A DNA stretch of 64,000 bases from a virus (IMGVR_UViG_2609460125_000009); one strand, 5' to 3'. Positions 5,231 through 62,210 are shown, counted from the stretch's first letter. The notes: generated by a model not told the origin, from the letters alone. Translations and numbers: made by a program.

Positions 5231-5246
5231 GTAAGTACATACTTAC
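5231..5246. promoter_or_regulatory. motif family 2 palindrome GTAAGTACATACTTAC
   Basis: Perfect inverted repeat ~45 bp upstream of the 5290 ORF. Confidence 0.45.
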
Positions 5247-5289
5247 GATCATAGAATATAAAAATAACCAATACACTACGGAGAGTGAA

Positions 5290-5685
5290 ATGACCGTTAA
5301 ACGCGAAAAACTGACAGTTGATGTTTACTATGCCTCTGAAACCGCCGAAGGTAAGAATGTGGCAAAAATCACCGTTGTTACGTACAACACCGAAACTGGT
5401 GCCGAAGTACAGGCCAGTACGATCGTGCGTAAAGGTGATGCCTCCGGCGGCGAGTACGCGACTCAATACCAGTCCATTCTCGATGCAACTGACCCGCTGC
5501 TGCTGAAAATCGAGAACTACTTCCGCCAGGTTGATGAAGAGGTGTTTGAAACCATGATGAATATGGTTAACACCGTATTCGCCTCCAGCCTGAACACCAG
5601 CACCACCTGGATTGGCCAGTACGGTCTGCGCATTACCTCTGGCATTCCTGCCGACACCTTAATCCCTGAAAGCGTATTCGCTTAA
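5290..5685 (+). CDS. hypothetical protein
   Basis: ORF with GGAGAG RBS. Confidence 0.45.
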   Translation: MTVKREKLTVDVYYASETAEGKNVAKITVVTYNTETGAEVQASTIVRKGDASGGEYATQYQSILDATDPLLLKIENYFRQVDEEVFETMMNMVNTVFASSLNTSTTWIGQYGLRITSGIPADTLIPESVFA

Positions 5686-5695
5686 TCCTCTTTAA

Positions 5696-5722
5696 ATGGC
5701 GCGTAAACCGCGCCATTTTATT
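5696..5722 (+). terminator. rho-independent terminator
   Basis: ATGGCGCG…CGCGCCAT stem followed by TTTTATT. Confidence 0.65.
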
Positions 5723-5731
5723 AAGCCCGAT

Positions 5732-5746
5732 AACAATTTGTTTTCT
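5732..5746. promoter_or_regulatory. motif family 1 site AACAATTTGTTTTC
   Basis: Palindrome upstream of the 5803 ORF. Confidence 0.45.
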
Positions 5747-5802
5747 GCCTTATCTGATTTGTGAAAATGATTTCACTGAAGCAACTTAATAAGGAAACCA
5801 TC

Positions 5803-6177
5803 ATGGGACTTGATATCTATATCGAGACACAGCCTAAAAACGATCTGAATAACGAGGCATCCAGAAAGCGGGTTGCTTACTTCCGTAAGTTCAATGCGCT
5901 CGTTGGGTGGATGGAGCGCAACGTAGGTGAAGTCGAAAATTGTGAGCTTTTAGAATTAACGATGAATGACATTTGTTTTCTGAAGGCTCATTTGATGCAC
6001 ATAAACGAAAGTAATTGCGAAGAGTACTTGCCTACCCGGGAAGGTTTTTTCTTCGGCAGTCAGGAGTACGATGAAGGTTACTGGCATGATGTGGGGGAGT
6101 TGAAAGAGCTTGTGGAAGATCTGATTAAGAACCACGACTTTCACAATAACAGACTGACCTTCTGCGCCTGGTGGTAA
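5803..6177 (+). CDS. hypothetical early protein
   Basis: ORF with AAGGAAACC RBS; the longer frame from 5761 would start at GTG. Confidence 0.45.
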   Translation: MGLDIYIETQPKNDLNNEASRKRVAYFRKFNALVGWMERNVGEVENCELLELTMNDICFLKAHLMHINESNCEEYLPTREGFFFGSQEYDEGYWHDVGELKELVEDLIKNHDFHNNRLTFCAWW

Positions 6178-6179
6178 AT

Positions 6180-9846: not shown

Positions 9847-10371
9847 TCAAAAAGGCAAAATTCGTTCAACCCAATCGAACAAAACAACTATTTTTCTACC
9901 GTTCTCGACACGTAGTGTAACCTGACAAGCATCTGCGCCTGCTGACACCCCCTCAATTTCACGGCCATCCGCCATGTACACCCTTATAGATTTGTTTGCT
10001 TTGTAGGCTTGGTTGCAAATTGCAAAAAAATCGCGGCGTGATGGCCGATTATCGACATAATCAGGGTGAACTGTTAATCGACCTTTGAAATCGTGAGCGA
10101 TACTGTCAACCACACCTGATTCAATTGTACTAATGCGTTCAAGTGGGAGCCTTATACGATTTTCTTTGTCAAAAGGGGCTGGGCAAAGGTCAACTTTGTT
10201 GCGAGATGGCATGAGGCCATAAACGTACATGCAAAACGCCTGACCATCTTCGAGAGTGACCCTTACAGGAATTTGTTCTCTGCGCCAGAACATCAGTAGT
10301 TTTTCAACGTTAGTGTAATCTCGCGGCAAGAGTTCAGCTTGGATACCGTAGGTAATATCTTTGGTTGTCAT
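9847..10371 (-). CDS. hypothetical protein
   Basis: Start moved to the internal ATG (MTTKDITYG…) to avoid overlap with the upstream lipoprotein gene. Confidence 0.4.
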   Translation of the reverse strand: MTTKDITYGIQAELLPRDYTNVEKLLMFWRREQIPVRVTLEDGQAFCMYVYGLMPSRNKVDLCPAPFDKENRIRLPLERISTIESGVVDSIAHDFKGRLTVHPDYVDNRPSRRDFFAICNQAYKANKSIRVYMADGREIEGVSAGADACQVTLRVENGRKIVVLFDWVERILPF

Positions 10372-10375
10372 GTCA

Positions 10376-10798
10376 TCACAGAGTTGTTGGCAGAATGTCG
10401 ATGTTACCAGAATTGCTGGTGAACACCCTGAACGCTTTTGTGTCTCCATTCTTCAGAGTCGTTTCTCGCTCTTGACGAGCGGGGTTTAGAGCACATAAAC
10501 CTGCACCTTCAAGAGATGCACCCACAATTAATTCTCCGGCATTTAAATGGAAAGTCGCTTTTTCGCCTGTAGCCAGTTTTGCGACAGTTTCGCCATTGAT
10601 GAAAATGGAAGCATCACATCCAGCTCCTACAAAACCTGTGTCTCTCATTACCACCAACGTAGCTGGCGCTGCGCTTTGATACTTGAACACTTTGGCCTGC
10701 GGTGCTGGTTTGGCGTCATGGATTGATATTGGACGTGATTGGCACGCGGTAAGCATCAACACTGGTAACGTTAGTAGAGGGAGAAGCGAGTATTTCAT
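10376..10798 (-). CDS. putative lipoprotein
   Basis: Signal peptide with lipobox (…VLMLTAC); start at MKYSLL. Confidence 0.5.
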   Translation of the reverse strand: MKYSLLPLLTLPVLMLTACQSRPISIHDAKPAPQAKVFKYQSAAPATLVVMRDTGFVGAGCDASIFINGETVAKLATGEKATFHLNAGELIVGASLEGAGLCALNPARQERETTLKNGDTKAFRVFTSNSGNIDILPTTL

Positions 10799-10866: not shown

Positions 10867-11145
10867 TTATTTTAATCTGCTTAATAGCGTTTCGAGATCT
10901 TCCTTTGTCATATTAGAGTTCTCATAGATACGCATGATTTTCTCACGAGTCTTAGCGGAAGCCCCGACAGAAGATATAACCTTGTCAAAGTCGGCCATTG
11001 TCAATTGTTCCAGAATGGTATTAATGACTTCAGCCTTAGACATTTTGATATTTTTTTCTTTTAGTTTCACTTGAAACTTTCCAAGTTTGTCATTGGCCTT
11101 ATCAGACAATGCTACCTGACAGTAAGTTGTTTTCTTTTCACTCAT
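10867..11145 (-). CDS. hypothetical small protein (92 aa)
   Basis: ORF immediately downstream of the helicase gene. Confidence 0.4.
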   Translation of the reverse strand: MSEKKTTYCQVALSDKANDKLGKFQVKLKEKNIKMSKAEVINTILEQLTMADFDKVISSVGASAKTREKIMRIYENSNMTKEDLETLLSRLK

Positions 11146-11147
11146 AA

Positions 11148-12707: not shown

Positions 12708-12752
12708 AAACCTCTTTCCTTAGTGCCTTTTGTATGTTATTTGGCTATTATA

Positions 12753-12772
12753 ATAAGTAAGTGATTACTTAG
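12753..12772. promoter_or_regulatory. motif family 2 palindrome ATAAGTAAGTGATTACTTAG in a divergent promoter region
   Basis: Inverted repeat between the helicase operon (-) and the ParB-like operon (+). Confidence 0.45.
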
Positions 12773-12789: not shown

Positions 12790-13470
12790 ATGGATGTAAA
12801 AATCACGATTTTGCAGGTTGATGTTGCCAACCTTCGCCCGAATACCTGGAACACCAATTCGGTTGGTGCGCAGAATTTTGAAAAACTGAAAGGTTCTATC
12901 GAAAAATTGGGCTTTTTTAAGCCAATTTTGGCTCGTGAACTTGAAGATGGATTTTTTGAAATCCTCGGCGGCGAACATCGCTGGCGTGCTGCTATTGAGC
13001 AAGGAATTTCAACGGTTCCGGTGCTTTCTGTGGGCAAAATTAGCGATGTCGTAGCTAAACAGATGTCACTGGTGGACAACGAGCGATACGGTGAAGACGA
13101 CCAAATCGCATTGCAACGCTTCATTGAAGAAATTCAGTCAGAACTTGACTATCAACTGTCTGAAATCGCCCCGTATGACGACGAAATCTCGATGGTTTTA
13201 GCAAAAGAGGCGGCAATCGACCTTGAAGCACTGGAGGCGTTGTCTCGTGGTAGTGATGAGCCTGTCGATACCGACAAACGAGAGAAAACCGAACGTGTGG
13301 GTGCGGAACATCAGACCATGCGCTTCAAAGTAACTTTCGATGCGTCAGATCGTGTTGCAGAAACCATAAAAAACATCATCAAAGAGCAGGCTATTAACAC
13401 CGGTAATGAAATGGAGAACGCTGGTGAGGCTCTGGTGTGGCTGGTCGACTACTACAAGGAGCGTATGTAA
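12790..13470 (+). CDS. ParB/Srx-fold nuclease-like domain protein 1
   Basis: ParB N-terminal-like motif (…FEILGGEHRWRAA…); start could be 12772. Confidence 0.6.
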   Translation: MDVKITILQVDVANLRPNTWNTNSVGAQNFEKLKGSIEKLGFFKPILARELEDGFFEILGGEHRWRAAIEQGISTVPVLSVGKISDVVAKQMSLVDNERYGEDDQIALQRFIEEIQSELDYQLSEIAPYDDEISMVLAKEAAIDLEALEALSRGSDEPVDTDKREKTERVGAEHQTMRFKVTFDASDRVAETIKNIIKEQAINTGNEMENAGEALVWLVDYYKERM

Positions 13471-14138
13471 TGACCAAAAAGTTTGAAATCGTATATCGCG
13501 ACCCGGCAGATCTTATTCCCTATGAGATGAATGCCAAAAAGCATGATGAACAGCAGATCCGAGATCTGGCCGCAGCCATTAAAAAGCGCGGATTTGACCA
13601 GCCAATTACGGTCGATAAGAACGACGTAATTATTACTGGCCACGGCCGCCGTGAGGCTGCAATTTTTGCTGGACTTGAGCGCGTACCGGTTATTGTTCGC
13701 GATGATCTCAGTGATGACGAGGTTCGTGCGAAGCGCCTTGAAGATAACCGACTTGCCAGCATTGATTACGATGCAATTAAGCTACAGAAAGAGCTTGAGT
13801 CGCTTGTTCTGGACGATATCGAGGTTTTCGGCTTTGAAGAGCGTGAGTTGAATGTTCTCGTTGGCAGCATGACAGAAGAAATGGACACCGACTCGCTAGT
13901 TATCGATCTTGGCGAAGAAACTAAACGACAGAAGGATGAACACACCGAGATCAGTCGTGAAGTTGCAGCGGAAGAAGTACGTGTTGTCGACGTATTGGGC
14001 TTTAAAACGCTTCCTGCTGGCTCTGCCATTGTTGTTGGTGATTTGCTTGCCCACATGGAAGAAATGACGGGAGAAAGCGGGGTAGACGCATTTGTGGCAT
14101 ATGCGGAGAAGATCTCTTCCGGGGAGATGGCTGCATGA
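13470..14138 (+). CDS. ParB/Srx-fold nuclease-like domain protein 2
   Basis: ParB-like motif (…VIITGHGRREAA…); start overlaps the upstream stop (TAATG). Confidence 0.6.
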   Translation: MTKKFEIVYRDPADLIPYEMNAKKHDEQQIRDLAAAIKKRGFDQPITVDKNDVIITGHGRREAAIFAGLERVPVIVRDDLSDDEVRAKRLEDNRLASIDYDAIKLQKELESLVLDDIEVFGFEERELNVLVGSMTEEMDTDSLVIDLGEETKRQKDEHTEISREVAAEEVRVVDVLGFKTLPAGSAIVVGDLLAHMEEMTGESGVDAFVAYAEKISSGEMAA

Positions 14139-15696: not shown

Positions 15697-15963
15697 ATGA
15701 CGTTAACCGATAAACAAAAGGACATCATCAAAACGCTCAATCTCGGTTATGAGCGAGGTCATCTACTTGACCTGGACGAATTGCTTGAAGTTTTGCCGTA
15801 CAAGACAACTAAGCAAAGTATCCAGTTCTCAATTCGCGCTCTGATAAAAAAGGGGCTGGTGGAGAAAGGGCATACGCGCCAACGCAGTGACAATCGCTAT
15901 CACCGCCGAACTCTTGGGTTAACCACTTTAGGTCGAGCCAAAGCGAAGTTACTGGTGATGTAA
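15697..15963 (+). CDS. small DNA-binding protein (winged-helix-like)
   Basis: 88-aa basic ORF; HTH call is by pattern only. Confidence 0.4.
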   Translation: MTLTDKQKDIIKTLNLGYERGHLLDLDELLEVLPYKTTKQSIQFSIRALIKKGLVEKGHTRQRSDNRYHRRTLGLTTLGRAKAKLLVM

Positions 15964-15987
15964 TCGGTCTGGGAGCTTATTTAAAGA

Positions 15988-16042
15988 CCTGCTTCTGTAT
16001 ATATAAATAATAAGTAACTTATTAAATATATACGGAAGCAGG
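15988..16042. repeat. 55-bp hairpin element, copy 1 (CCTGCTTCTGTATATATAAATAATAAGTAACTTATTAAATATATACGGAAGCAGG)
   Basis: Imperfect palindrome with a motif-family-2-like centre; identical copy at 48434-48488. Confidence 0.7.
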
Positions 16043-16104
16043 CTTCGTAAGACATGCCAGACCTAATTAAACACCCCAGAAAACAAGTTGGTTAGCAGAT
16101 GCAG

Positions 16105-16791: not shown

Positions 16792-18047
16792 TGGCAATCC
16801 CGTCCTCGCTCAGTCTTGTGCAACTGCATTCTGGACAGATGAAAGTCTTCCAGTCTCCGCATCGATTTAAAGTTGTTTGTGCTGGTCGACGCTGGGGAAA
16901 ATCCCGGTTGTCGATCTCCACTATTATTCGTGCGGCGGCAAAGGAAAAAAAGCAAAGGGTCTGGTATGTCGCTCCTACTTACCAGATGGCTCGCCAGATT
17001 TTGTGGGACGATCTACAGGAAGTTCTGCCTCGTAAGTGGGTTAGGAAAAAGAACGACACCACGATGACAATCGTGTTGAAGAACGGTTCGGAGATCGCCC
17101 TCAAAGGTGCTGATAAGCCTGACACTCTGCGCGGCGTAGCGTTGCATTTTGTAGTGCTTGATGAATTTCAGGATATGAAGGCTGACACTTGGTACAAGGT
17201 GTTACGACCTACTCTTTCATCGACACGCGGCGGTGCACTGATCATTGGTACGCCAAAAGGCTTCTCGGAATTTCACAAACTGTGGACTATAGGCCAGAAC
17301 GTAGAGCTGCAAAGAAAGGGACAGTGGAAGAGCTGGCAGTTTGTAACTGCCGATTCTCCGTTTGTACCTACGGCGGAAATTGAAGCTGCTAAGAACGATA
17401 TGGACCCCAAATCGTTCGCTCAGGAGTACCTGGCCAGCTTTGAGAACATGTCCGGGCGCGTTTACTACCCGTTCGATCGTAACGTGCATGTAAAACCGCT
17501 TCAGTTCAACCCTCGGTTACCTATATGGGTAGGGCAGGACTTCAACATTGACCCGATGTCTTCCGTAATTTTGCAACCTCAGCCAAATGGTGAGCTATGG
17601 GCAATTGATGAATTGGTGCTCTTTTCCTCTAACACGGCAGAGGTTTGTGATGAGCTTGAGAGACGCTTCTGGCGCTGGAAATCACAGATAACGATATTTC
17701 CAGATCCGGCAGGTGCTTATCGCCAACATGCTCGCGGGGAGTCTGACGTCGACATATTCAAAGAGAAGGGATTCTTACGTGTCGATTATTCGAAAAAGCA
17801 CCCGCCAATTGCGGATCGTGTTAATGCTGTTAACCGAATGCTGATGACCGCATCTGGAGATATCCGGCTGTATATCGATCCGAAGTGCAAGCATTTGATT
17901 GATTCACTGGAAAAAGTCATCTACAAGCCTGGAACACGAGATATGGATAAGACAGGTGGCATTGAGCATAGTGCAGACGCATTGGGCTATCCAGTACATC
18001 GTAGGTATCCAGTCAAAAACCGTGTTATTCTTGGTGGTTCTCGATAG
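16791..18047 (+). CDS. terminase large subunit
   Basis: Walker A-like VCAGRRWGKS, Walker B VVLDEF; gene order. Confidence 0.8.
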   Translation: MAIPSSLSLVQLHSGQMKVFQSPHRFKVVCAGRRWGKSRLSISTIIRAAAKEKKQRVWYVAPTYQMARQILWDDLQEVLPRKWVRKKNDTTMTIVLKNGSEIALKGADKPDTLRGVALHFVVLDEFQDMKADTWYKVLRPTLSSTRGGALIIGTPKGFSEFHKLWTIGQNVELQRKGQWKSWQFVTADSPFVPTAEIEAAKNDMDPKSFAQEYLASFENMSGRVYYPFDRNVHVKPLQFNPRLPIWVGQDFNIDPMSSVILQPQPNGELWAIDELVLFSSNTAEVCDELERRFWRWKSQITIFPDPAGAYRQHARGESDVDIFKEKGFLRVDYSKKHPPIADRVNAVNRMLMTASGDIRLYIDPKCKHLIDSLEKVIYKPGTRDMDKTGGIEHSADALGYPVHRRYPVKNRVILGGSR

Positions 18048-18073
18048 GTAAGTAATTATCTAAGGTTATTCAA

Positions 18074-19648
18074 ATGGAATTGAACGACAAACAAATTAAG
18101 GATCTGGTGGCGCGACGCCACCCGGAATACGAAAAGAAAAAAGAACATTGGGACTTCCTCGCCAGCACTTACGCTGGCGGGCGTGGTTGGTTTACAGACA
18201 ATATCTTTCGTTACTTTAAAGAGGGAGATCAGGAGTTTAAGGAGCGAGTTGAACGTGCTTATCGCTTCAACCACACTCGTGAGGTGGTAAACCTCATCAA
18301 CAAATATCTCTTTAAAGAAGACATTCATAGAAATATCGAAGAGGCACCAGAGCAGATCCGCAATTTCTGGAAACGTGCGACTCGCCAGAATGCCTCTATT
18401 GACTCATTTATGGCCGCTATTGATTTGCAGTCGTCTATTTACGGTCGCATATGGGTTGTTGTCGATAGCACGATGAGTGGTGATGTTGAGTCAGTAGCTG
18501 ACGAGAAAAAGAAAGATGCTCGCGCCTACGCCTACTGGATTTCACCTCAGCAAATGCTGGATGTGGCATGGGACGACGACGGGAATATGTTGTGGGCGTT
18601 AATTGTGGAAGTCGCTCGTGATGACGCAGATCCTTTTACTTCTACAGGTCAGGAATACCAACGTTATCGTCTGTGGACACAAAACGAGTGGTATCTGTTC
18701 CGTGAGGAAGTGAAGAAGGGCGCTGGTGGAGCAGGTCGCCGTCAGGCAAAAGTTATTTTAGAGGATAGCGGTGAGCATAATCTCGGCGTAGTTCCTGTGT
18801 TTCCTGTTGATTGTATTGGAGAAAGTGAATCACCGTATTTCAGCCCATCGTTGATCGATGATATCGCTTATCTTGATCGTGCGGTTGCAAACTATCTGTC
18901 AAACCTTGATGCCATTATTCAGGATCAGACATTTAGCCAGTTGGCTATACCGGTACAGTCGCTTTTACCTGGTGATGAAAACCACACTAAAGTGCTTGAA
19001 ATGGGCACAAAGCGAGTCTTCACCTACGATTCTGAAGGCGGAAACCAGCCGTTTTATCTGTCACCAGACCCGAAACAAGCTCAGATGATCATCACTACGA
19101 TTAAGACGGTGATTAACGAAATCTACCATTCAGTTGGTGTAGCTGGTGAGCGAACGAAGCAGGACAACGCACAGGGAATCGATAATTCATCTGGTGCCGC
19201 AAAAATGTATGACTTCCAGCGTGTAAATAGCTTGCTTGTCACAAAAGCAGAGCGTCTGGAAAGGGCTGAACGCCAAATCATGCTACTGGTTGCGAAATGG
19301 ATGGGGGTAGATCTGGACGAAGACCACTCTTTAATTGCGTATCCAGAAAGTTTCGATATTCGTGGCCTTACTGATGAATTTTCTGTTGCCGAGAAACTGT
19401 CATTACTTCAGGCACCGGACTCTGTACGTCGTCACCAGATGGAAATGCTTATTGAGAAGATTTTCCCGAACATTACTGAGGCGATGAAAAAGGAATTTGA
19501 TAAAGATCTCTTGAATTTTCCTCCAAAAAATGATCTAAATACCCTTGAAAATAAGTCAGTACTTACTTATGATCGTGGTGCAGCCCAAGAAAGCGGGCAA
19601 GATCAACCCCGAGGGAATGGGGACTCATCTACTCAAGAGAACGAGTGA
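18074..19648 (+). CDS. portal protein (putative)
   Basis: 524 aa directly after terminase large subunit. Confidence 0.65.
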   Translation: MELNDKQIKDLVARRHPEYEKKKEHWDFLASTYAGGRGWFTDNIFRYFKEGDQEFKERVERAYRFNHTREVVNLINKYLFKEDIHRNIEEAPEQIRNFWKRATRQNASIDSFMAAIDLQSSIYGRIWVVVDSTMSGDVESVADEKKKDARAYAYWISPQQMLDVAWDDDGNMLWALIVEVARDDADPFTSTGQEYQRYRLWTQNEWYLFREEVKKGAGGAGRRQAKVILEDSGEHNLGVVPVFPVDCIGESESPYFSPSLIDDIAYLDRAVANYLSNLDAIIQDQTFSQLAIPVQSLLPGDENHTKVLEMGTKRVFTYDSEGGNQPFYLSPDPKQAQMIITTIKTVINEIYHSVGVAGERTKQDNAQGIDNSSGAAKMYDFQRVNSLLVTKAERLERAERQIMLLVAKWMGVDLDEDHSLIAYPESFDIRGLTDEFSVAEKLSLLQAPDSVRRHQMEMLIEKIFPNITEAMKKEFDKDLLNFPPKNDLNTLENKSVLTYDRGAAQESGQDQPRGNGDSSTQENE

Positions 19649-19669: not shown

Positions 19670-20557
19670 ATGAATCTGTGGCAAATGCTTTTGGCCCGTC
19701 GTGGTCTGATGGATGTCGCTGAAGCGCATGAGCGTGGAGGCGCTGGCGGTGTAGCTGCTGATAATGAGCAGAGTACACAAGATCCTGATAAACAGGGTGA
19801 ACAAAAAGAGCAGCCGAAGGGCGATGACGAATACGCTGGCATGACTCAGGAAGAGTTACTGGCCGAACTTCGTAAAACCAAGAAAGCTGGTGCTGAACTG
19901 CTGAAGGAGAACATGAAGCGCAAAGAGAAAGAGCGCACATTGGCCGATCAGCTTGCTCAGTACGGTGATATCGATCCGGCTCGTGCTCGCCAGCTTTTAG
20001 AAGCTGAACAGGCCGCAGAAAACGCACGTCGTGAGGCGGAGCAAGCTGAACTGGAGCGTCGTGGTGAGTTCGATGCTGTTAAAAAACAGATGATCGAAGC
20101 ACACCAGGCAGAGCTGGCACAGCGTGACGAATGTTATGCAGCACTGGAAAGTGAAAACGCATCACTGAAATCTCAATTAGTCGAGATGACCGTGGGCGCT
20201 TCCTTCAGTAACTCTCTCTTCCTACGTGACAAAGTTCTGATGACCCCGGCAAAAGCCCGCGTGATCTACGGTTCTCATTTTGAAGTGGGTGAAGACGGTA
20301 GCGTAGTGGGTTATGACAAACCGGCAGGTCACAAAGAACGAGCTGTTCTGGTTGACGGTGAAGGTAAGCCGTTGCCGTTTGAATCCGCGATTGAACGCAT
20401 TGTGCGGGCAGATCCGGAAGCTGACGCATTGATGCGTAGCGAAGCCAAGCAGGGTGTAGGCTCACATTCCAAATCGACCTACACAATATCCCAACCGAAG
20501 AACAAGTCGACTATGGATAAGTTGGCCTCCGGTCTGGGGAAAATTGGACTTAAGTAA
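19670..20557 (+). CDS. scaffolding protein (putative)
   Basis: Charged, coiled-coil-like sequence between portal and capsid genes. Confidence 0.55.
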   Translation: MNLWQMLLARRGLMDVAEAHERGGAGGVAADNEQSTQDPDKQGEQKEQPKGDDEYAGMTQEELLAELRKTKKAGAELLKENMKRKEKERTLADQLAQYGDIDPARARQLLEAEQAAENARREAEQAELERRGEFDAVKKQMIEAHQAELAQRDECYAALESENASLKSQLVEMTVGASFSNSLFLRDKVLMTPAKARVIYGSHFEVGEDGSVVGYDKPAGHKERAVLVDGEGKPLPFESAIERIVRADPEADALMRSEAKQGVGSHSKSTYTISQPKNKSTMDKLASGLGKIGLK

Positions 20558-20582
20558 CATCTAAATCAAAGGGAATTGATAG

Positions 20583-21458: not shown

Positions 21459-21492
21459 TCAGTGTGATAGATAAGCAATTATCTATGTTTAA

Positions 21493-21518
21493 GGGTGGGC
21501 TATACGCCCACCCTTTTT
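21493..21518 (+). terminator. rho-independent terminator after the capsid gene
   Basis: GGGTGGGC…GCCCACCC stem followed by TTTTT. Confidence 0.7.
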
Positions 21519-21531
21519 GTAGGAGCGAGAA

Positions 21532-22452: not shown

Positions 22453-22496
22453 CCGATATTGGGCGGCTTTCGCCGCCCAAGTGGAGAGAAAGCGTT

Positions 22497-24652: not shown

Positions 24653-24653
24653 T

Positions 24654-25037: not shown

Positions 25038-25045
25038 CTCAATTG

Positions 25046-47554: not shown

Positions 47555-48322
47555 TTATGCCGCGCTAACACTATGTTCAGTCCTAACCACCCCAACCTTC
47601 ACAAAAGGGCTACCGTAGCTTGGTGGCTTCTTGATTAATTTGCCTACATACAGTTTTCTAATATGCTCATCGGCTATTCTGCCAACAAATTCATAACGTT
47701 TTGTGTCGGGGCCAAGAGCTATATCCCTTGTAAAGTACTGCTGAGAACCGGCTTTGACCCAGCATTCAATCTGATAAACTTCCATTATCAGCCCACCATA
47801 TGTAGCGTAGGCATATTTGAGATTCTCGTCTCTTGGAACCTTTGCCCATACGCCACGCGTAGCTTCATATAATGCCAGAGCGGACATTCCTGACTTGTAG
47901 GTGCTGTTTAGCAGGAAGGCAAGACCGGCGTGCTCAGGAGCAATTTCAGTTTCCTCTTGCAGCACTAAGTGATGGTAGGCGTCCAGTGATATTCTGCCCA
48001 TCATGGAACCACTTCCTCGTACCTTATTCGTAAGCTCTCCGACCCCCATAAGGTCGATGCATGTCGCCTCAACAAGTTTGGCTGTGGTTTCATCCATACC
48101 ATGACGAAGTATATCTATGCCTAATTTTTTATTAGCCAAAAGTTCTTTGATCCGCATGGATTTGGGAGAGTCATCGGGATACTTGATGTGATCGAGACAA
48201 CGAGTCGATTTGCCTTTTCCTATGTAAAACGGTCTTTTCATCTTGTCTTCTGTATCATAGAGACAGTAAACATAGTATTTAGCCTTATCCAATGATCTCG
48301 CGTATACCGATAAATCGTCCAT
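47555..48322 (-). CDS. GIY-YIG nuclease domain protein
   Basis: N-terminal YVYCLYD…FYIGKGK…R…H motif; C-terminal domain unassigned. Confidence 0.55.
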   Translation of the reverse strand: MDDLSVYARSLDKAKYYVYCLYDTEDKMKRPFYIGKGKSTRCLDHIKYPDDSPKSMRIKELLANKKLGIDILRHGMDETTAKLVEATCIDLMGVGELTNKVRGSGSMMGRISLDAYHHLVLQEETEIAPEHAGLAFLLNSTYKSGMSALALYEATRGVWAKVPRDENLKYAYATYGGLIMEVYQIECWVKAGSQQYFTRDIALGPDTKRYEFVGRIADEHIRKLYVGKLIKKPPSYGSPFVKVGVVRTEHSVSAA

Positions 48323-48433
48323 TATTGCATCTCTTTGCTACTGACTAATGCGTTCTATTTTACACATAAGTTTTTAATCAATTTAACAGGCTCAAAGTGT
48401 AGAGCTTCTGGGCGTCTAAGACGACAAGTTATG

Positions 48434-48488
48434 CCTGCTTCTGTATATATAAATAATAAGTAACTTATTAAATATATACGGAAGCAGG
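48434..48488. repeat. 55-bp hairpin element, copy 2
   Basis: Identical to 15988-16042. Confidence 0.7.
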
Positions 48489-48595
48489 TCTTTTAAAAGA
48501 CACCACCAGAACAACTCCCTTCCGTTTCCACTTCCAAAAACTGCCACCAGTCGCTATCATCCGCTCATTGTGATAAGTAAGTAACTACCTACCAG

Positions 48596-52005: not shown

Positions 52006-52026
52006 AATAAGTAGATGATTACTTAT
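52006..52026. promoter_or_regulatory. motif family 2 site ATAAGTAGATGATTACTTATC
   Basis: Inverted repeat upstream of the 52068 ORF. Confidence 0.45.
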
Positions 52027-52067
52027 CTTTCTGTAAGAATACTTTCATCTGTTAGCTAGGAGTTGGT

Positions 52068-52850: not shown

Positions 52851-52905
52851 TCTCTCCGCGCGTCGTTTTTTACGCAAATAACGATAGGTAAGTACAAGAT
52901 TATTT

Positions 52906-54707: not shown

Positions 54708-54883
54708 TGCTCGGCTGGATGATTGCATTTTTAGCGGTTGGTTTTTTAATCGGTATTGTGGTGATGTCCAGTTGCATCAATGACTACATTAAAAGCGGTG
54801 TTATAGAACGACGCGGTCGTATTTATCGCATTGTAGAAATAACCCGCACAGTGAAGGAGATTAAGGATGATCGTATTAAGTAA
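54704..54883 (+). CDS. small membrane protein (59 aa)
   Basis: ATGA overlap with the ligase stop; hydrophobic N-terminus; not in the supplied track (<60 aa). Confidence 0.35.
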   Translation: MMLGWMIAFLAVGFLIGIVVMSSCINDYIKSGVIERRGRIYRIVEITRTVKEIKDDRIK

Positions 54884-55082
54884 GCGGGAGAAGGAAACGC
54901 TTCATGAAATCAGTAAGTGGCCGGAGTTCCCTGAGTACTGGAAGCCTAAAACGCGGGCTAAGTTAGAGCGGTTAGGGTTGGTTGCAAACGTTTCTGAAAC
55001 GTGGTGTTCGGCCAACTACCAGTTAACTGATAAAGGGAAAGTATTGCTACAGCAATTAGTAGAATCAGGAGCGTTAAAATGA
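54867..55082 (+). CDS. hypothetical small protein
   Basis: 71-aa ORF overlapping its neighbours. Confidence 0.4.
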   Translation: MIVLSKREKETLHEISKWPEFPEYWKPKTRAKLERLGLVANVSETWCSANYQLTDKGKVLLQQLVESGALK

Positions 55083-55518: not shown

Positions 55519-55538
55519 AAACATGGTGATAAGTATTT

Positions 55539-55560
55539 ACTTACTTATCTTTTATGTATA
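55539..55560. promoter_or_regulatory. motif family 2 site GATAAGTATTTACTTACTTATC
   Basis: Inverted repeat at the start of the tRNA-containing non-coding region. Confidence 0.45.
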
Positions 55561-56294
55561 AGATGACTTTGTTTTCGTTGAGACGCGACTGTTTGAACTT
55601 AAATACAAGTGCAAACGAAGAAGTCTATCTGGCAGTAGCCTAATAAGCCAAACACCAGCGAGGTCAGTTTCCAGCCTCGTTACCGAAATGGGACACACTG
55701 AGCGAGTGTGATTGCAGAACGCAGGAGGGAACATTCATGTTCCCTCCGATGAAGTAACAGAATGGGCGGTTGGTATATTTTCAACTCCATATGACTCCCG
55801 GATTCTTAGCCACTGACCGCCCATCCTGTTACGTCATTTTGTTCAATTATGTCGTTTATACTGGGTTAAAAAGCGGCGACGTAGCCCGGCTGGTATGGTT
55901 AGCCAGCACACAACGTTGAGGCCATTACATTTTTATCAATTCTAAGGTTCTATTCACAGAGATACCGGCGAGCGTTGATATGTAACATGTTGGGCAAACA
56001 TTCAATCGGAGTAGTGGCCTCAACGTTGTGAAGACAGGATTGTTGTGTAGGTTTAACCACTGTTGCCATTGGTGCCTGTTTTCACAACAAATGATTCCAT
56101 ACATCACATTGTATAAATTACAAAGTAGGTGCTGTCCTCAGAAACATCATCTACTTAAAGATTTTGCCTTCTATTGAGCGAAGTCGAAAACGTCTGGCAC
56201 TAACGGAAAGTGCAAGTAGCGGTGTGTTTCCTGGCAGAAACTAACACCGCCGCGATTGGCACTGTTGAGTAATAAATACTGGCAGTGCTGAATT

Positions 56295-56369
56295 GATGGT
56301 GTAGCTCAGCGGTAGAGCAGTTGGCTGTTAACCAACTGGTCGGTGGTTCGAATCCACCCACCATCGCCA
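56295..56369 (+). tRNA. tRNA-Asn (anticodon GTT)
   Basis: Hand-folded cloverleaf: acceptor GATGGTG/CACCATC, anticodon loop CTGTTAA, T-loop TTCGAAT, 3' CCA encoded. Confidence 0.8.
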
Positions 56370-56374
56370 ATTTA

Positions 56375-56461
56375 GGGGAGTTAGTCCGTAGAGGTAGCGG
56401 GGTAGACTGTAAATCTACTGTCATTGCGACTCGGGTGGTTCGACTCCATCACTCCCCACCA
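56375..56461 (+). tRNA. tRNA-Tyr (anticodon GTA), long variable arm
   Basis: Acceptor GGGGAGT/ACTCCCC, anticodon stem-loop GTAGA-CTGTAAA-TCTAC, long variable arm; D-arm pairing is atypical. Confidence 0.6.
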
Positions 56462-56465
56462 AATT

Positions 56466-56541
56466 GCCGGTTTAGCTCAGTTGGTAGAGCGCCTGCCTTG
56501 TAAGCAGGATGTCAGCGGTTCGATCCCGTTAACCGGCACCA
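56466..56541 (+). tRNA. tRNA-Thr (anticodon TGT)
   Basis: Acceptor GCCGGTT/AACCGGC, D-arm GCTC-AGTTGGTA-GAGC, anticodon loop CTTGTAA, T-loop TTCGATC. Confidence 0.8.
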
Positions 56542-56904
56542 ACACAACAGGTAAGAGCATTGGGCGAATCGGCGATACTGACCCACAAGCCCGTAAATCG
56601 ATAGAGTCAGACCAGTGCTCTTACCGTTGTGAGGAAGTGCAGCTCTTTGAAGCAACCAGAAGATAAGCATCTGGCTTCACAACACAACGATAAGATCATT
56701 ACGGTTAATCGTCGTTCATGTGCACAATGACTGGTCGAAAGGTAGTGATCTTACCGTTGTGGTGGATTCGCAGACTGATGCGATAGCTTTCTTGGATGTT
56801 AGGGAAATGCGGCCGCAAATCTTCCCTTTCGCGAGCGGTGATCGTCCGTAGTCCTAATTGGCTGCACCGTATGCCGGAGATTCAGTACCGGCCACCACAA
56901 CGGC

Positions 56905-56991
56905 CGGAGAGTAGGGAGCATGGTGCTCAAGCGGTCTTGAAAACCGTCCCATTGCGCAAGCGATGATGGTTCGATTCCATTACTCTCCGCC
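56905..56991 (+). tRNA. tRNA-Ser (anticodon TGA), long variable arm
   Basis: Acceptor GGAGAGT/ACTCTCC, anticodon loop CTTGAAA, T-loop TTCGATT; D-arm atypical. Confidence 0.55.
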
Positions 56992-57147
56992 AGACACAGC
57001 GTTGAGCGGTTTGGCCTTTTAATCACCCAGATTAAGACTCCGCTAACATAAACCAGACCGCTCAACGCTGTGATAGACAATTACGGCAGACGTTCTTAAC
57101 CATAGCTTGCTAACATCCTAGCAACACTTTTTTTCAGCGCAAAATTC

Positions 57148-58016: not shown

Positions 58017-59120
58017 ATGAAAAATAGCTTTGACAGAGCACGCGCTGCGGAGAACACCTCAAAAGAGGCGATTGAGTATCTCGAAAGAGCATCTCAAATG
58101 CAGGCCGTTATGATCTCCCAGGTCAGCAATGACATGAGATTCTCGGACGCATTCATGTTATTCACTCGCTTATCTCTGCTGATAACAAGACGTCGGCCAG
58201 AGATCGCTGTTCATTGTATTTTGATACATGTTTTGCCGCACATTGCCGATGTAAAAGTAAGTGATATTAATAGGTTCATGGTGAACCAACTGGTCAACCC
58301 ACTAATACTGGATGGCAAAATTGTTATGGGTCGCCGCGTTTTCTCTCTGATGAAGCAGTTCCTCAGCTGGTGCGCCTTCCAGGGGATGATCGACGTGTCA
58401 CCGTTAAACGATATGTCACTTAACAAAGTTGCCGGTGGCGCAAAGCCCACACCTCGCGAGCGGAAGCTGACCGACGCAGAGGTATGGGTGTTCTGGAATA
58501 TATGGGACTACTTCAATGTGTGTGCTGGTACAAAATGGGCGGCCAGGCTATGTCTTGTATCCGCAAGACGACCTGACGAAGTACTGCGGGCTAAAAAAAG
58601 TGAGTTCAATCTTAAGCGTGGGGTTTGGAATCAAGGCAAGAGGAACAAATCTGCCCGTGAGCATTCTCTGCCTTTAAGCTCATTAATGCGCACTTGTATT
58701 GAAGAGTTGTTCGAATATGGTAAAGACAGCCAGTGGCTCGTGCCTTCGAATAAAAAAATCGGGAAAGACCTTCCTATGTCTAAAGTGGCAATAGCCCAGG
58801 CATTACGTCGTATTCTGGAACGACCAGAACTGATGGAGCTTGAGCCATTTACACCCCGAGATTTGCGCCGTACTGCGCGTAGTTACTTCCCAGCATTAGG
58901 CATAAGCCAGGAGGTATCACGTAAAATCATGAACCACAGTCTTGAGGGGATAGATCGGGTCTACGACCGGCACGATTATATGGACGAGATGCGAGACGCC
59001 TTAGAAAGTTTCTCGACGTACATCGCATCAATCGTAGAGCAACCGGATTTAGACGAAATTGACCACAAATTTAAGGGAGATCGTCTATCAACAGAGCTTA
59101 TTCGTGTAAATTTTTCATAG
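58017..59120 (+). CDS. tyrosine recombinase / integrase
   Basis: C-terminal catalytic pattern RDLRRTARS…H…VYDRH; N-terminal start uncertain. Confidence 0.6.
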   Translation: MKNSFDRARAAENTSKEAIEYLERASQMQAVMISQVSNDMRFSDAFMLFTRLSLLITRRRPEIAVHCILIHVLPHIADVKVSDINRFMVNQLVNPLILDGKIVMGRRVFSLMKQFLSWCAFQGMIDVSPLNDMSLNKVAGGAKPTPRERKLTDAEVWVFWNIWDYFNVCAGTKWAARLCLVSARRPDEVLRAKKSEFNLKRGVWNQGKRNKSAREHSLPLSSLMRTCIEELFEYGKDSQWLVPSNKKIGKDLPMSKVAIAQALRRILERPELMELEPFTPRDLRRTARSYFPALGISQEVSRKIMNHSLEGIDRVYDRHDYMDEMRDALESFSTYIASIVEQPDLDEIDHKFKGDRLSTELIRVNFS

Positions 59121-59501
59121 AGACTTTATGGCCTCAACAACCTTTTGTGATGCGCCTTTCTCTTTACCGAATCGCTCGTTATATGCAGCAAGAACCTGTT
59201 TTTCGTCCTCGTTAAGAGGAGCAGTGCCTTCTTTGTATAAAAATGCTGCGAGTTCGGGTTGGCGTTCTTCCAGCACCATCATCATAAGACGACTTGGCTC
59301 AATACCCAGTGCCAGCGCCAGCGGACGAACCTTATCGATAGGCAAAGGAATTTTGCCGCTTTTAATTAAAGAAAGGTTGTTGGCGTTTTTATACCCAATT
59401 GTTTTGGCTATCTGGGCCTGGCTCATAGGTGAGGATTCAATCAACCCTGCGATAAAAGCAGCGTAGCGACTTTCTATAAATTCAATCTTGTTATCAGACA
59501 T
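59115..59501 (-). CDS. XRE-family HTH transcriptional repressor
   Basis: HTH (…SQAQIAKTIGYKNANNLSLIKSG…); divergent from a small plus-strand ORF. Confidence 0.65.
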   Translation of the reverse strand: MSDNKIEFIESRYAAFIAGLIESSPMSQAQIAKTIGYKNANNLSLIKSGKIPLPIDKVRPLALALGIEPSRLMMMVLEERQPELAAFLYKEGTAPLNEDEKQVLAAYNERFGKEKGASQKVVEAIKSL

Positions 59502-59752
59502 GGTTACAACCTTTGCGCGTTCAATTCTCTCTGGTAAGTGCTTACCGATATTACATCAAAGGTTAGGGTTGTAAAGCTATTATCATTTTTTTCGATAGGC
59601 ACTTAAAAGACCGGTTAAAGGCCATTGCACGGAGAAAAATTAGCCCAAAATAGGTAAGAAAATCAACTTGCATATGATATGAATGTATTCAGTATTGATA
59701 CAAATTTTAGTAGTATTCCTTACCATAGTATAAGTTAGAATGGATTGATTGA

Positions 59753-59965
59753 ATGAACACCACTATTTCCAGCCTAATCGCTCTTGAGATCGGACACGTA
59801 CAGAAATTAGCTGATGAGTGTGTAGCTGACATCCTCACCGATCTACCGAATGAGCAGATTCAGGTTGGTGTGAATGACACAACTGGATTTATATTCGAAC
59901 TTAACAACAAACGCTTCACGCTTCTCAATACCGGCTCCGGGTCTTTAGCCGTCAGAATCTGTTAA
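59753..59965 (+). CDS. hypothetical small protein
   Basis: 70-aa ORF divergent from the XRE gene. Confidence 0.35.
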   Translation: MNTTISSLIALEIGHVQKLADECVADILTDLPNEQIQVGVNDTTGFIFELNNKRFTLLNTGSGSLAVRIC

Positions 59966-60032
59966 CCCCTCTTCTCCCTGCGCGAATGGCTTAGTTCCCT
60001 GTTCGCGCAGTGCTACATTAAACACACTAGTA

Positions 60033-60046
60033 AATAATTTGTTTTC
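60033..60046. promoter_or_regulatory. motif family 1 half-site AATAATTTGTTTTC
   Basis: Upstream of the CobT-like gene. Confidence 0.4.
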
Positions 60047-60063
60047 ATAACAAAGGATTAGCC

Positions 60064-62172
60064 ATGTCTAAAAAACGTTCCATCAAAGAGGTTCAGGACT
60101 TCCGTGACAGTGTAAAACGAGTAGTCGCTCTCCTTTCAGGTAAAAACATCCCTGTTGCAGAACGAGGGGACGACGCTTATGTACGCTATAACGATGATGG
60201 AGAGCCAATTCTCGTAAACATCCCATCAATCCCGGATAACGCAACACCGGCATTGATGAATGCTGTGCGCGGATTTCTCGATCATGAGGTTGCTCACATT
60301 TTGTTTACCGATATTCGTGTGTCCAACAAAATGAGAGAAAAAGGACGCGTTCCTTCCTGGTCGCTATGGAATGCCTTAGAAGACGTGTTCATCGAGCGAA
60401 AAATGGGTCAGGTCTTTAACGGAACAAGACGTAATCTGATGGCAACTCAGCGCCTTATAATCGAAAAAGTCTTTAAACCAAAGGCTTCAGAGGCTATTGC
60501 TTATTGTGGCAAAGATCAGCGCGCGCTTTTTCTAAACTTCTTTCTCTGTCCGGTTGTAAGAGCCTGGGATGGCCAAGCACCGTTCGTAGATTTCATGGAT
60601 GAATATTGGCCTGTCATTGAGAAACCAATTTCATTATTAAAAGAACATGGTATCGATGTGGCCGTGCGTAACATGTCTTGCACCGAGGATTGTGTAAAGG
60701 TGGCTGCGACCATAGCTAAGATCCTCAAAGACACTGAAAGTGAAAGCAAAGGTAAGGAGTCAGCTCCGGGAAAAACTTCCGATCCTTCAGACGCTGACCA
60801 GACGGATGCCTCTGGAGAAAACAATGAAGACAACGAAGATCATGAGACACCCTCAGCGTTAGATAATCACAAATCTATCAAATCAGAATCACACAGTAAG
60901 CACAAACATGATAATAACGACGGTGATGATTCAGATAATTCTGAATCATCAGAAACAATATTCGATGATACAGAAAATGATAAAGAGGTATCAGATTCTG
61001 ATGCTTCTGATAACGCGGTGTCAGAATCATTTACCGCTGACCACGAAAAAAGAAAAACGACAGAAGACGGCTCTTCAGATATCCCAACTCCGTCAAAAAT
61101 GAGTCTGGAAGAGGCTTTAGAGGAGCTGGATAGCATAGAAGATGAAGTCGGAGGCATGACAGAAGATGCTCTATCCGAAACGATTAAAAGCGAGTTAACA
61201 GAAACCTCGAAAAGCGAATACAGGCCATACAATCGCTCATACGACTTCATCGGCTCGATTGATCAGGCAGAAGCCCATATCAAACGGCTTATTAAAACAT
61301 TCTCCGATATTGATTTAGGAGGATATCCAATCAGCCGCTATCGCATCGTTCCTGAAGGCAACCAGCTCTTCGACAAATATATTGAAAAGCATCTTTCGTC
61401 AGGTGTTTCGTCGACGCTGGCAAAAGACCTGGAGCGAGCAATAGCAAGCAGAAACAGAGTTCAGTTTATACCGGGCCAGCGTCGGGGGCGCATTCATGGT
61501 TCTAGTATCTACAGATTAGCAATGAATGATGATCGCGTGTTTCGTAAAAAAGAAGAATCTAAAGCCGTTAACGCCTGTGTTCAGCAAGTGATTGATTTAT
61601 CAGGTTCAATGAGTGGTATAACGATACAATTGGCTCTTGCAAGTGCATATACCATCGCCGATGCCCTTGATCGAATAAATGTTCCCAACATTATCACCGG
61701 CTTCACTACATTTGGTAGTCATATGGCGGCAGGAGAACTTAAGGCTGTCAAGTATGAGTTCTCTCGCTTTGAATCTTTAATGCTACCTATCATCAAAAAT
61801 TGGAATGAAAAGGTAAATTCTCGCGAAGTTCGCTCACGTATGGGGTGCGTAGGCTACACATTCCCACTTCTTAATAACGTGGATGGTGAAAGCATAGCCA
61901 GCCTTGCATCGTTATTTTCCGGTCGCATGGAGGACAGGAAGATCATGCTTGTTCTGAGTGATGGCGCGCCGTGGGCTGTTGGGAGAGGTTTTGACGCTCA
62001 TTTGCGTTCGGTTGCGAAGCAAATTGAAACGCAGACTGACATTGATTTGATGGCAATTGGCATCATGACTGACGCACCGGAGAGATTATACTCAAATCAT
62101 GCCCTGGTAACGAGCGTTGATAGTCTTGGTTCATCTGTAGTTACTGAACTATCTCGTATCATTTTAAAGTGA
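60064..62172 (+). CDS. CobT-like protein with C-terminal vWA domain
   Basis: Long acidic linker; MIDAS-like DLSGSMSG in the C-terminal domain. Confidence 0.6.
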   Translation: MSKKRSIKEVQDFRDSVKRVVALLSGKNIPVAERGDDAYVRYNDDGEPILVNIPSIPDNATPALMNAVRGFLDHEVAHILFTDIRVSNKMREKGRVPSWSLWNALEDVFIERKMGQVFNGTRRNLMATQRLIIEKVFKPKASEAIAYCGKDQRALFLNFFLCPVVRAWDGQAPFVDFMDEYWPVIEKPISLLKEHGIDVAVRNMSCTEDCVKVAATIAKILKDTESESKGKESAPGKTSDPSDADQTDASGENNEDNEDHETPSALDNHKSIKSESHSKHKHDNNDGDDSDNSESSETIFDDTENDKEVSDSDASDNAVSESFTADHEKRKTTEDGSSDIPTPSKMSLEEALEELDSIEDEVGGMTEDALSETIKSELTETSKSEYRPYNRSYDFIGSIDQAEAHIKRLIKTFSDIDLGGYPISRYRIVPEGNQLFDKYIEKHLSSGVSSTLAKDLERAIASRNRVQFIPGQRRGRIHGSSIYRLAMNDDRVFRKKEESKAVNACVQQVIDLSGSMSGITIQLALASAYTIADALDRINVPNIITGFTTFGSHMAAGELKAVKYEFSRFESLMLPIIKNWNEKVNSREVRSRMGCVGYTFPLLNNVDGESIASLASLFSGRMEDRKIMLVLSDGAPWAVGRGFDAHLRSVAKQIETQTDIDLMAIGIMTDAPERLYSNHALVTSVDSLGSSVVTELSRIILK

Positions 62173-62187
62173 ACAAAACAGCCTTAA

Positions 62188-62210
62188 CGATAAGTAACCA
62201 CTTACGATAG
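62188..62210. promoter_or_regulatory. motif family 2 site GATAAGTAACCACTTACGATAG
   Basis: Inverted repeat between the CobT-like and CobS-like genes. Confidence 0.4.

Follow-up and report, generated by a model that had tools for sequence, protein, structure and literature searches.

Distribution of the Palindrome

The stretch of viral DNA analysed here (IMGVR_UViG_2609460125_000009; 64,000 nt, called the window below, with all positions counted from its first nucleotide) carries nearly all of its genes on the + strand, and the gaps between these genes hold copies of an imperfect palindrome built on the half-sites GTAAGT and ACTTAC, which we refer to as family 2. Bases 20000–32000 show 98% identity to Escherichia phage CMS-2020a and phage Cyrano (pLF82), 80% identity to Salmonella phage SSU5 and 78% identity to Klebsiella phage-plasmids. 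Judged by these identities, the window is an SSU5/pHCM2/pMT1-type phage-plasmid of E. coli and comprises about 60% of such an element. A first-pass annotation had listed the palindromes as a second promoter or operator class, possibly for late genes, with a distribution complementary to that of another intergenic motif, family 1.

The consensus of family 2 is ATARGTAAGT|ACTTACYTAT with the core GTAAGTACTTAC, and the degeneracy of the arms is symmetric, ARGT on one side being mirrored by ACYT on the other. A few copies have four additional central bp (GTAAGT-N4-ACTTAC). All of these patterns are strongly enriched in the window: exact TAAGTA-N(0-12)-TACTTA occurs six times (0.03 expected), GTAAGT-N4-ACTTAC with at most one mismatch nine times (0.10 expected), and the 20-mer ATARGTAAGTACTTACYTAT with at most three mismatches eight times (0.00 expected, none in 100 shuffles). 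Sorting the matches by spacing gave GTAAGT-N4-ACTTAC as the single favoured arrangement, with two perfect matches, seven with one mismatch and three with two, and the most over-represented 9-mers of the window are ATAAGTAAG and GATAAGTAA. Motif discovery by expectation maximization over 80 intergenic regions of Cyrano, the kind of search that the first-pass annotation had proposed, recovered the palindrome: it converged on ...TGATAAGTAAGTACTTACTTATCAT... (...GATAAGTAAGTACTTACTTATC...), and a copy was assigned in about 24 regions. Together with the enrichment and with the symmetric change of the arms in a divergent clade (see below), this defines a two-fold symmetric site of about 14–20 bp.

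By our count the window holds 15 copies, and the complete phage-plasmid roughly 25. Their occurrence inside and outside of genes is far from equal, since the non-coding 11.5% of the window holds 14 of the 15 copies. The full Cyrano genome has 19 matches (2.96 expected), 17 of them in its non-coding 13%. The better arm is the upstream one in about three quarters of the copies, which is partly due to stop codons within GATAA/GATAG. The genes behind the copies function in head, tail and fibre formation, lysis, replication, recombination and nucleotide metabolism, and also include the tRNA region and the repressor gene described below, so that the suggested restriction to late genes was too narrow.

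Family 1 is a different palindrome (AAAACAAnTTGTTTT) with 14 matches in the window versus 0.68 expected, and sites at 1056, 1107, 4827, 5730, 6965, 16080, 16105, 46426, 49356 and 60031. It precedes the genes for the terminase small subunit, ParA, a helicase, a CobT-like protein and many small proteins, but never a family 2 gene. In the upstream regions of Cyrano it is typically located 10–11 nt downstream of a GATAAT/TATTAT −10 hexamer, just ahead of the ribosome binding site. None of the 14 matches coincides with a family 2 site, which confirms the proposed complementary distribution and supports family 2 as a separate, second cis-regulatory class.

Positions of the Individual Copies

The seven palindromes listed in the first-pass annotation are all present within a few bases of the positions given there (for example at 55529–55548 for 55539, and at 62190–62205 for 62188). 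Of the places described as resembling half-sites, five (18044, 31529, 43825, 48573, 52884) are in fact complete 20-mers whose left arm is good and whose right arm is degenerate; at 19645 there is no more than a left arm (GATAAGTAAC), and a near-perfect full site lies 95 bp upstream of it at 19551–19570. The copy at 21467–21486 and the core at 59533–59546 are additional members. A location 30–60 bp upstream of genes holds roughly for the copies at 5231, 25046, 38441, 52007 and 62190 (41–62 nt), but not for those at 52884, 18044, 48573 and 12753 (2–17 nt).

The first copy (GTAAGTACATACTTAC, 5231–5246), which has the four extra central bp, follows a terminator hairpin and is located 43 nt ahead of the ATG at 5290. 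Its palindrome arms and the −10 hexamer behind it are kept in 29 distinct orthologues that differ in the 5-nt linker; across clades this hexamer at 5252 reads TAGAAT, TAGTAT, TAATAT or TACAAT. The copy at 12753–12772 (ATAAGTAAGTGATTACTTAG) separates the divergent operons for a UvsW-like helicase (− strand) and for ParB-like proteins (+ strand), and a putative leftward −10 hexamer (TATTAT, reverse complement of 12750–12755) adjoins its left arm. At 18044–18063 (ATAGGTAAGTAATTATCTAA) the palindrome fills a 26-nt gap between the stop codon of the terminase large subunit gene (TAG, 18045–18047) and the ATG of the portal gene (18074); the orthologue in the divergent clade is GATAGGTGGTTAACTACCTATC. 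The best match to the 20-mer, with one mismatch (ATAAGTCAGTACTTACTTAT, 19551–19570), lies inside the 3′ end of the portal gene and is kept in Cyrano, SSU5 and the Klebsiella phage. A weaker copy with four mismatches (ATAGATAAGCAATTATCTAT, 21467–21486) between the major capsid gene and an immunoglobulin-like head gene has orthologues in SSU5, the Klebsiella phage and the divergent clade.

The copy that precedes the major tail gene is perfect (GTAAGTATATACTTAC, 25046–25061). In four genomes this 16-mer is identical and the −35 hexamer in front of it identical or nearly so, whereas the 11 nt before and the 25 nt after differ. Further copies precede the minor tail gene L (ATAAGTAAGTACTAATTTAC, 31529–31548) and the tail fibre gene (ATAAGTAGGTACATACTTAG, 38441–38460; ATG at 38504), and the Cyrano and SSU5 versions of the latter copy differ in sequence yet remain palindromic. 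The copy upstream of the holin gene (ATAAGTAAGTACACACCTAC, 43825–43844) combines a perfect left arm with a degenerate right arm and shares the last base of the stop codon of the upstream gene (TGA, 43823–43825). Two copies are very close to start codons: ATAAGTAAGTAACTACCTAC (48573–48592) lies 12 nt ahead of the first gene of the helicase/primase block, and ATAGGTAAGTACAAGATTAT (52884–52903) ends 2 nt ahead of the ATG at 52906. The copy ATAAGTAGATGATTACTTAT (52007–52026) is found upstream of the open reading frame (ORF) at 52068 and is followed 8 nt on by the extended −10-like sequence TGTAAGAAT; the copy ATAAGTATTTACTTACTTAT (55529–55548, two mismatches) is followed by TGTATAAGAT and lies upstream of the tRNA region. 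The core palindrome GGTAAGTGCTTACC (59533–59546) is directly downstream of the predicted −10 hexamer of the repressor gene (TTTACA-16-TAATAT, 59575–59548, − strand), and a variant with 4-bp spacing (ATAAGTAACCACTTAC, 62190–62205; GATAAT at 62210–62215) precedes the CobS-like gene.

The extended −10-like motif (TGTAAGAAT or TGTATAAGAT) is present 8–9 nt downstream of three family 2 copies (52034–52042, 55555–55564, and about position 84645 of Cyrano), and was also seen in the SSU5 and Klebsiella orthologues.

Conservation and Symmetric Change in a Divergent Clade

In Cyrano, SSU5, the Klebsiella phage and IMG/VR loci, family 2 copies are retained at the orthologous places and their flanks drift. 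Alignments of up to 54 distinct orthologues show conserved promoter hexamers and palindrome arms with variable linkers. A divergent clade, consisting of the IMG/VR loci L082–L088 and a Cronobacter plasmid, has a ParB-like protein with 72–75% identity. In this clade both arms have changed, to ATAGGTAGTT|AACTACCTAT, at the same orthologous positions (full Cronobacter-type site: ATAGGTAGTTAACTACCTAT). The two types are reciprocally exclusive between the clades: counts of E-type versus C-type 20-mers were 8 versus 3 in the window and 1 versus 7 in the Cronobacter plasmid, and those of the 12-mer cores 3:0 and 0:4. Such a symmetric change of both arms is as predicted by co-evolution with a symmetric dimer.

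Relation to Promoters and to Expression in Lysogens

Promoter assignments in this study rest on consensus matches and on conservation across genomes. A scan with the sigma-70 consensus gave fewer matches than chance overall, but four matches on the + strand fall on family 2 copies. In TTGAAA-17-TATGAT (19545–19573; hexamers at 19545–19550 and 19568–19573, promoter match 10/12) the palindrome forms the 17-bp spacer, in TTGTAA-17-TAGAAT (5229–5257; hexamers at 5229–5234 and 5252–5257) it extends over the −35 and the spacer, and in TTGAAT-18-TATACT (25029–25058) its centre is the −10 hexamer itself (25053–25058, with the −35 at 25029–25034). In TGGATA-17-TATCAT (31526–31554) the −10-like TATCAT (31549–31554) adjoins the palindrome. 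Complete sigma-70-like promoters are predicted at three or four family 2 sites. At the repressor promoter the palindrome would occupy about +2 to +15. Since the placement varies from site to site and some of the promoters are already near consensus, the behaviour of the palindrome fits better with a repressor operator than with an activator box of fixed geometry, such as the Lpa box of phage P1. From the proposed second promoter or operator class we retain the operator, lying over promoter elements; a promoter type of its own is unlikely, because the position relative to −35 and −10 shifts between sites.

We also considered whether TATCAT at the right end serves as a directional −10 hexamer. 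T at position six of the hexamer is enriched, but so is the mirrored A on the left. By our reading of the counts a TATCAT-like flank is found in 13/22 cases in forward and the mirrored ATGATA in 11/21 cases in reverse orientation, and both flanks are better read as part of the palindrome.

The bulk RNA-seq data available for Cyrano (PMC9928086, supplement 2) are in agreement with repression. In lysogens grown in LB medium nearly all lytic genes are at floor level, including those behind near-consensus family 2 promoters. In column MB6, which we take as macrophage at 6 h, the most induced lytic units start exactly at family 2 copies with good hexamers (genes 4–5, 12–13, 56–57, 60–62), and the six good-hexamer sites show a median induction of 3.6 log2 compared to 2.0 for the rest (p = 0.02). 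In condition B6 expression drops from the gene ahead of a copy to the gene behind it (−1.0 versus +0.45, p = 0.002), a comparison that is confounded by terminators, and no such effect was seen in the other Cyrano conditions. The step-down in B6 could reflect roadblocking or simply terminators.

An activating function is the alternative that survives best, although we consider it rather unlikely. The palindrome would then be the activator box of promoters without a −35, in the style of the P1 late promoters, and some activator of the phage-plasmid would switch units on late or midway. The P1 protein Lpa binds AAGTnACTT centred near −22, upstream of the −10 hexamer, and the late promoters in the annotated P1 record have the form AAGT(G/T)ACTT-N4-TAnnAT. 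Both systems have AAGT/ACTT half-sites about 20 bp upstream of −10-like hexamers and many copies per genome, most of them without a −35. In many family 2 copies TATCAT, TATTAT or TATGAT overlaps or adjoins the right arm, the units behind the best copies are inducible, and the element shares the P1-like genes for Cra, TciA/B and the S fibre. However, the half-sites are spaced by 0 bp (AAGTACTT) or 4 bp (AAGTAnnTACTT) instead of the 1 bp in the AAGTnACTT of P1, and the 9-bp repeat is not found. The distance from the box to the −10, fixed at 4 bp in P1, is variable here and reaches 5–6 nt past the arm, the hexamer being central at 25053, overlapping at 19568, adjoining at 31549 and 5 nt beyond the palindrome at 5252. 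The TATCAT flank is mirrored on the left about as often, and looks like a part of the palindrome. The three or four copies in complete sigma-70-like promoters would need no activator and are nevertheless silent in lysogens, and the copy downstream of the −10 of the repressor promoter is in a repressing position. A tblastn search with P1 Lpa (PF25716) against the window, Cyrano, SSU5 and the Klebsiella phage found no homologue (best E = 0.87).

A Candidate Repressor

Among the proteins considered, the XRE-family helix-turn-helix regulator encoded at 59115–59501 (− strand, 128 aa) is the best-fitting candidate binder. It is 100% identical to CYRAN_45, annotated as a 'putative repressor'. By sequence it matches Pfam HTH_19 with E = 7.8e-4, which is below the curated cut-off, and has no match in the PDB. 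In the AlphaFold2 (AF2) model (predicted local distance difference test score, pLDDT, 79.2) five helices are placed at residues 12–23, 28–34, 41–47, 55–64 and 69–80. The top Foldseek matches of this model are C.BclI, C.AhdI, HigA, 434 repressor and P22 c2, with target-normalised template modelling scores of 0.7–0.8 and weak E values of 0.01–0.09; the root mean square deviation is 1.4 Å over 60 columns for P22 c2 and 1.9 Å for 434 repressor. The protein is thus modelled with the five-helix DNA-binding fold of cI-type repressors.

In Cyrano lysogens the XRE gene is expressed at 96 versus a background of 9.8. Its predicted promoter, TTTACA-16-TAATAT, is followed by the palindrome GGTAAG(C/T)ACTTACC (GTAAGYACTTAC). 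Promoter and palindrome are invariant in all informative upstream sequences from about 80 IMG/VR loci, a Klebsiella plasmid and Y. pestis pMT1; the sequence flanking them varies, and the invariance spans homologues of 56–100% protein identity. An operator at the repressor's own predicted promoter is the arrangement of an autoregulated gene. Homologues of the XRE protein were found in 865 plasmid records, with the same spread over taxa and hosts as a backbone marker (822 records). In phage SSU5 the gene is absent at the syntenic place and the operators are kept. The segment GYKNxNxLSLIKxGxIPLP, with the predicted recognition helix inside it, hardly varies among 25 distinct homologues, and a change (K→E at residue 38, L→N at residue 45) is seen only in the Cronobacter clade, whose operator differs. 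An exact-pattern scan of viral contigs for the predicted variant operator at the repressor promoter returned five other contigs, none from the divergent clade, which are probably chance matches.

With moderate confidence we consider family 2 as a set of dispersed operators in double-stranded DNA that are most likely bound by this XRE repressor and that would silence the lytic units and autoregulate the repressor gene. Several observations weigh against this view. When all 24 family 2 genes of Cyrano are taken together, there is no significant step-up or induction, and lysogens show moderate expression of two copy-bearing units, the UvsW operon and gene 34. Most copies lack a recognisable −35. 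Those at 18044, 48573 and 52884 are only 2–12 nt away from a start codon, which is not enough space for a leader, so that they cannot serve as promoter operators of the ordinary kind. The two spacing classes with 0 and 4 central bp are awkward for one rigid dimer. The promoter region of the Cronobacter repressor gene has no clean variant palindrome; what is present is a left arm close to the start and, about 120 nt upstream, a hybrid site, so that the argument from co-variation is incomplete. Finally, the element encodes other conserved small proteins that may bind DNA, namely a ribbon-helix-helix-like protein (10867–11145) and two winged-helix-like proteins (15697–15963 and 54867–55082).

The palindromes might be operators for the protein 10867–11145 (− strand) or for the protein 15697–15963, which is encoded just upstream of the terminase genes, with the XRE gene being merely one target; this we regard as unlikely. 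The gene 10867–11145 belongs to the operon whose promoter region has the copy at 12753, and its homologue CYRAN_117 is one of only a few prophage genes with expression in lysogens (114 versus a background of 9.8). The protein shows a strand-helix-helix pattern, with which the secondary structure in a poor AF2 model agrees, and the arms have a 4-bp periodicity (AAGT AAGT ACTT ACTT). Ribbon-helix-helix operators show a periodicity comparable to these 4-bp repeats. On the other hand, the presumed DNA-reading strand varies (Y/H/S, A/Q/K/P) among genomes with the same operator, and the confidence of the AF2 model is low (pLDDT 57.6), too poor for a fold search. The protein 15697–15963 has a weak match to LexA-type winged helices (E = 0.07), but its presumed recognition helix is unchanged in the clade with the changed operator, and its Cyrano homologue is silent in lysogens (7.8). 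The protein 10867–11145 belongs to PHROG 1466, a group of unknown function.

It is much less probable that the copies are centromere-like or KorB-like sites for the ParB-domain proteins 12790–13470 and 13437–14138, acting in partition or global silencing. One copy (12753) is directly upstream of the ParB-like operon, and both proteins have ParB N-terminal domains. Dispersed sites for silencing or partition are known for KorB on RK2 and SopB on N15. But a partition or silencing protein is expected to be present in lysogens, and the ParB-like operon is at background in Cyrano lysogens (5–9.5 versus 9.8). Moreover, both proteins match the 'ParB-like nuclease' families of phages, which often occur alongside methylases and terminases, a helix-turn-helix domain was not detected in them, and the separate ParA module (46475–47502) has a family 1 and not a family 2 site ahead.

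In the E. coli, Klebsiella, Yersinia and Cronobacter plasmids the XRE repressor gene forms a module (58017–59965 in the window) together with an integrase gene and a small divergent gene. The phage isolate SSU5 lacks this module at the corresponding place between the tRNA-Asn and CobT-like genes (42525–42761 of the SSU5 record) and may therefore be a repressor-less derivative. A LexA-box-like sequence (TACTGTATGTGTATACAGTA) is located upstream of the S24 peptidase gene CYRAN_98 (Cyrano 89250–89310, outside of the window). CYRAN_98 is highly expressed and further induced in macrophages, which suggests a UmuD-like, SOS-controlled gene rather than a repressor.

DNA Versus RNA as the Functional Form

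An RNA hairpin in 5′ leaders or intercistronic regions, recognised by the FljA-like protein 9847–10449 (− strand) and controlling translation or processing, is the least probable of the alternatives, with hardly any weight in our view. Many copies are indeed 2–20 nt away from start codons and within operons, the perfect copies could form hairpins of 6–8 bp, and the element encodes a conserved Flag1_repress homologue (PF03614, E = 1.7e-82) of FljA, the phase-1 flagellin repressor. FljA acts post-transcriptionally on fliC mRNA and is of the RNA-binding type (PMC2652032). However, the folding energies of the copies range from −6.8 kcal/mol for a perfect copy to −0.7 kcal/mol, and several are unfolded: the copy at 43825 (−0.7 kcal/mol, z +0.47) folds no better than shuffled sequences. 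The left arm is often perfect beside a degenerate, even unrecognisable right arm. At the mirrored R/Y positions A is frequently opposite C, and such mismatches are not compensated, while the symmetric ARGT/ACYT degeneracy is what duplex DNA predicts. In the divergent clade all copies have changed alike instead of each compensating independently. A search of Rfam with the family 2 element gave no matching family.

The contrast to true RNA structures is visible in the same regions. GC-rich hairpins at 25067–25081, 31558–31580 and 38461–38483, between the family 2 copy and the ribosome binding site of the major tail, tail L and fibre genes, fold at −5.5, −17 and −15.5 kcal/mol, respectively. Their stems differ among the E. 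coli, Salmonella and Klebsiella relatives and yet stay paired through compensatory changes, whereas the family 2 palindromes have no such changes. These hairpins may stabilise the 5′ leader or act as attenuators. Because in family 2 the sequence and not the pairing is conserved, the arms change symmetrically in the divergent clade, and several copies form no RNA hairpin, the pattern points to duplex DNA that is read by a symmetric protein.

SSU5, Klebsiella and the divergent clade all keep the FljA homologue 9847–10449, which has a weak Hfq-like match at its C-terminus and might enable the prophage to switch off translation of host flagellin. The fliC leader of E. coli K-12 contains GTAATCAACGACTTGC, with three mismatches to the family 2 16-mer, and we discarded a link between the two as probably due to chance (about p = 0.02, post hoc).

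Proposed Mechanism and Comparison to Known Systems

In the mechanism that we propose, a dimeric regulator encoded by the element, with the XRE protein as best candidate, would bind the imperfect palindromic operators. Sigma-70-type promoters that an operator overlaps, be it at the −35, in the spacer, at the −10 or at the start site, would be blocked, and about fifteen gene blocks, for head, tail, fibre, lysis, replication and nucleotide metabolism, would be silenced. The operator at the repressor's own promoter would result in autoregulation, so that one protein could keep the lytic units silent during plasmid lysogeny. In very short gaps, such as that between the terminase and portal genes, the bound protein may also block read-through transcription. 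Binding, the identity of the binder, repression as its effect and the promoter start positions are what we infer here from the promoter matches, the conservation and the expression data.

One repressor with many dispersed operators is a familiar strategy, and the result is useful rather than surprising. It resembles the C1 regulon of P1, likewise a plasmid prophage of enterobacteria, in which many lytic units each have one operator at the promoter and the promoter of the regulator has one as well; dispersed C1 operators are found in the annotated P1 record. The P1 operators differ in being asymmetric 17-mers for an unrelated protein, compared to 20-bp palindromes and a small candidate with XRE fold here, and there is no sequence relation. 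With the lambdoid cI, 434 and P22 c2 systems family 2 would share the XRE-type fold, palindromic operators of 14–20 bp, one of them located at the promoter of the repressor gene itself, and a divergent neighbour gene (here 59753–59965, strongly induced in Cyrano). The lambdoid systems have two operator clusters for two early promoters, whereas about 25 single operators are spread here over 100 kb, also inside structural operons, and the 128-aa XRE protein has no S24 peptidase domain.

The third comparison is to the stoperators of mycobacteriophages L5 and L1. Both systems have about 25–30 sites in short gaps within early and late operons, and these sites often reach stop or start codons; the examples here are the 26-nt terminase/portal gap and the copy at 43825, which touches a stop codon. 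The L1/L5 repressors bind multiple dispersed operators (PMC1934351). Stoperators are asymmetric 13-mers that act in one orientation, while the family 2 copies are palindromic.

In its broadest form our proposal is speculative: a single XRE repressor would silence the whole lytic programme of the SSU5/pHCM2/pMT1 family via about 25 sites, acting as promoter operators and, in very short gaps within the structural operons, as roadblocks, and the AAGT/ACTT core shared with the P1 late promoters (at about −20) would go back to an ancestral element common to both, which now serves repression in one phage-plasmid family and activation in the other. If this is true, the family 2 sites are a palindromic, enterobacterial counterpart of the mycobacteriophage stoperators. 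We found no description of lysogeny maintenance or of such an operator system in the literature on SSU5-like phage-plasmids.

Such elements occur frequently in E. coli, Klebsiella, Salmonella, Enterobacter and Yersinia and can carry resistance genes; more than 800 sequenced enterobacterial plasmids, including Yersinia pestis pMT1, belong to the family. Confirmation of the operator consensus, the regulon map and the candidate repressor would provide a direct handle for inducing or curing them. Their promoters could be annotated and immunity groups predicted, with the Cronobacter clade expected to be heteroimmune.

Further Observations in the Window

Two nearly identical AT-rich palindromes of about 55 nt (CCTGCTTCTGTATATATAAATAATAAGTAACTTATTAAATATATACGGAAGCAGG) are present at 15987–16043 and 48433–48489. 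They were missed by the inverted-repeat finder at its default seed and were confirmed by folding, with energies of −29 and −30 kcal/mol (z −8.8 and −11). Each sits at the end of an operon, one ahead of the terminase genes and the other behind the ParA module, and Cyrano has related copies near 31175, 78099 and 108364. They could serve as bidirectional terminators or as sites of another kind.

The tRNA cluster at 56295–56992 comprises four genes (Asn, Tyr, Thr, Ser), while three are annotated in Cyrano (Asn, Thr, Ser) and one in SSU5, so that the complement differs between close relatives. The ORF at 47555–48322 (− strand) encodes a GIY-YIG nuclease domain (LEM-3-like, E = 5.5e-7). Cyrano has a hypothetical gene on the + strand at this place, and the ORF may be a strain-specific insertion such as a homing endonuclease gene.

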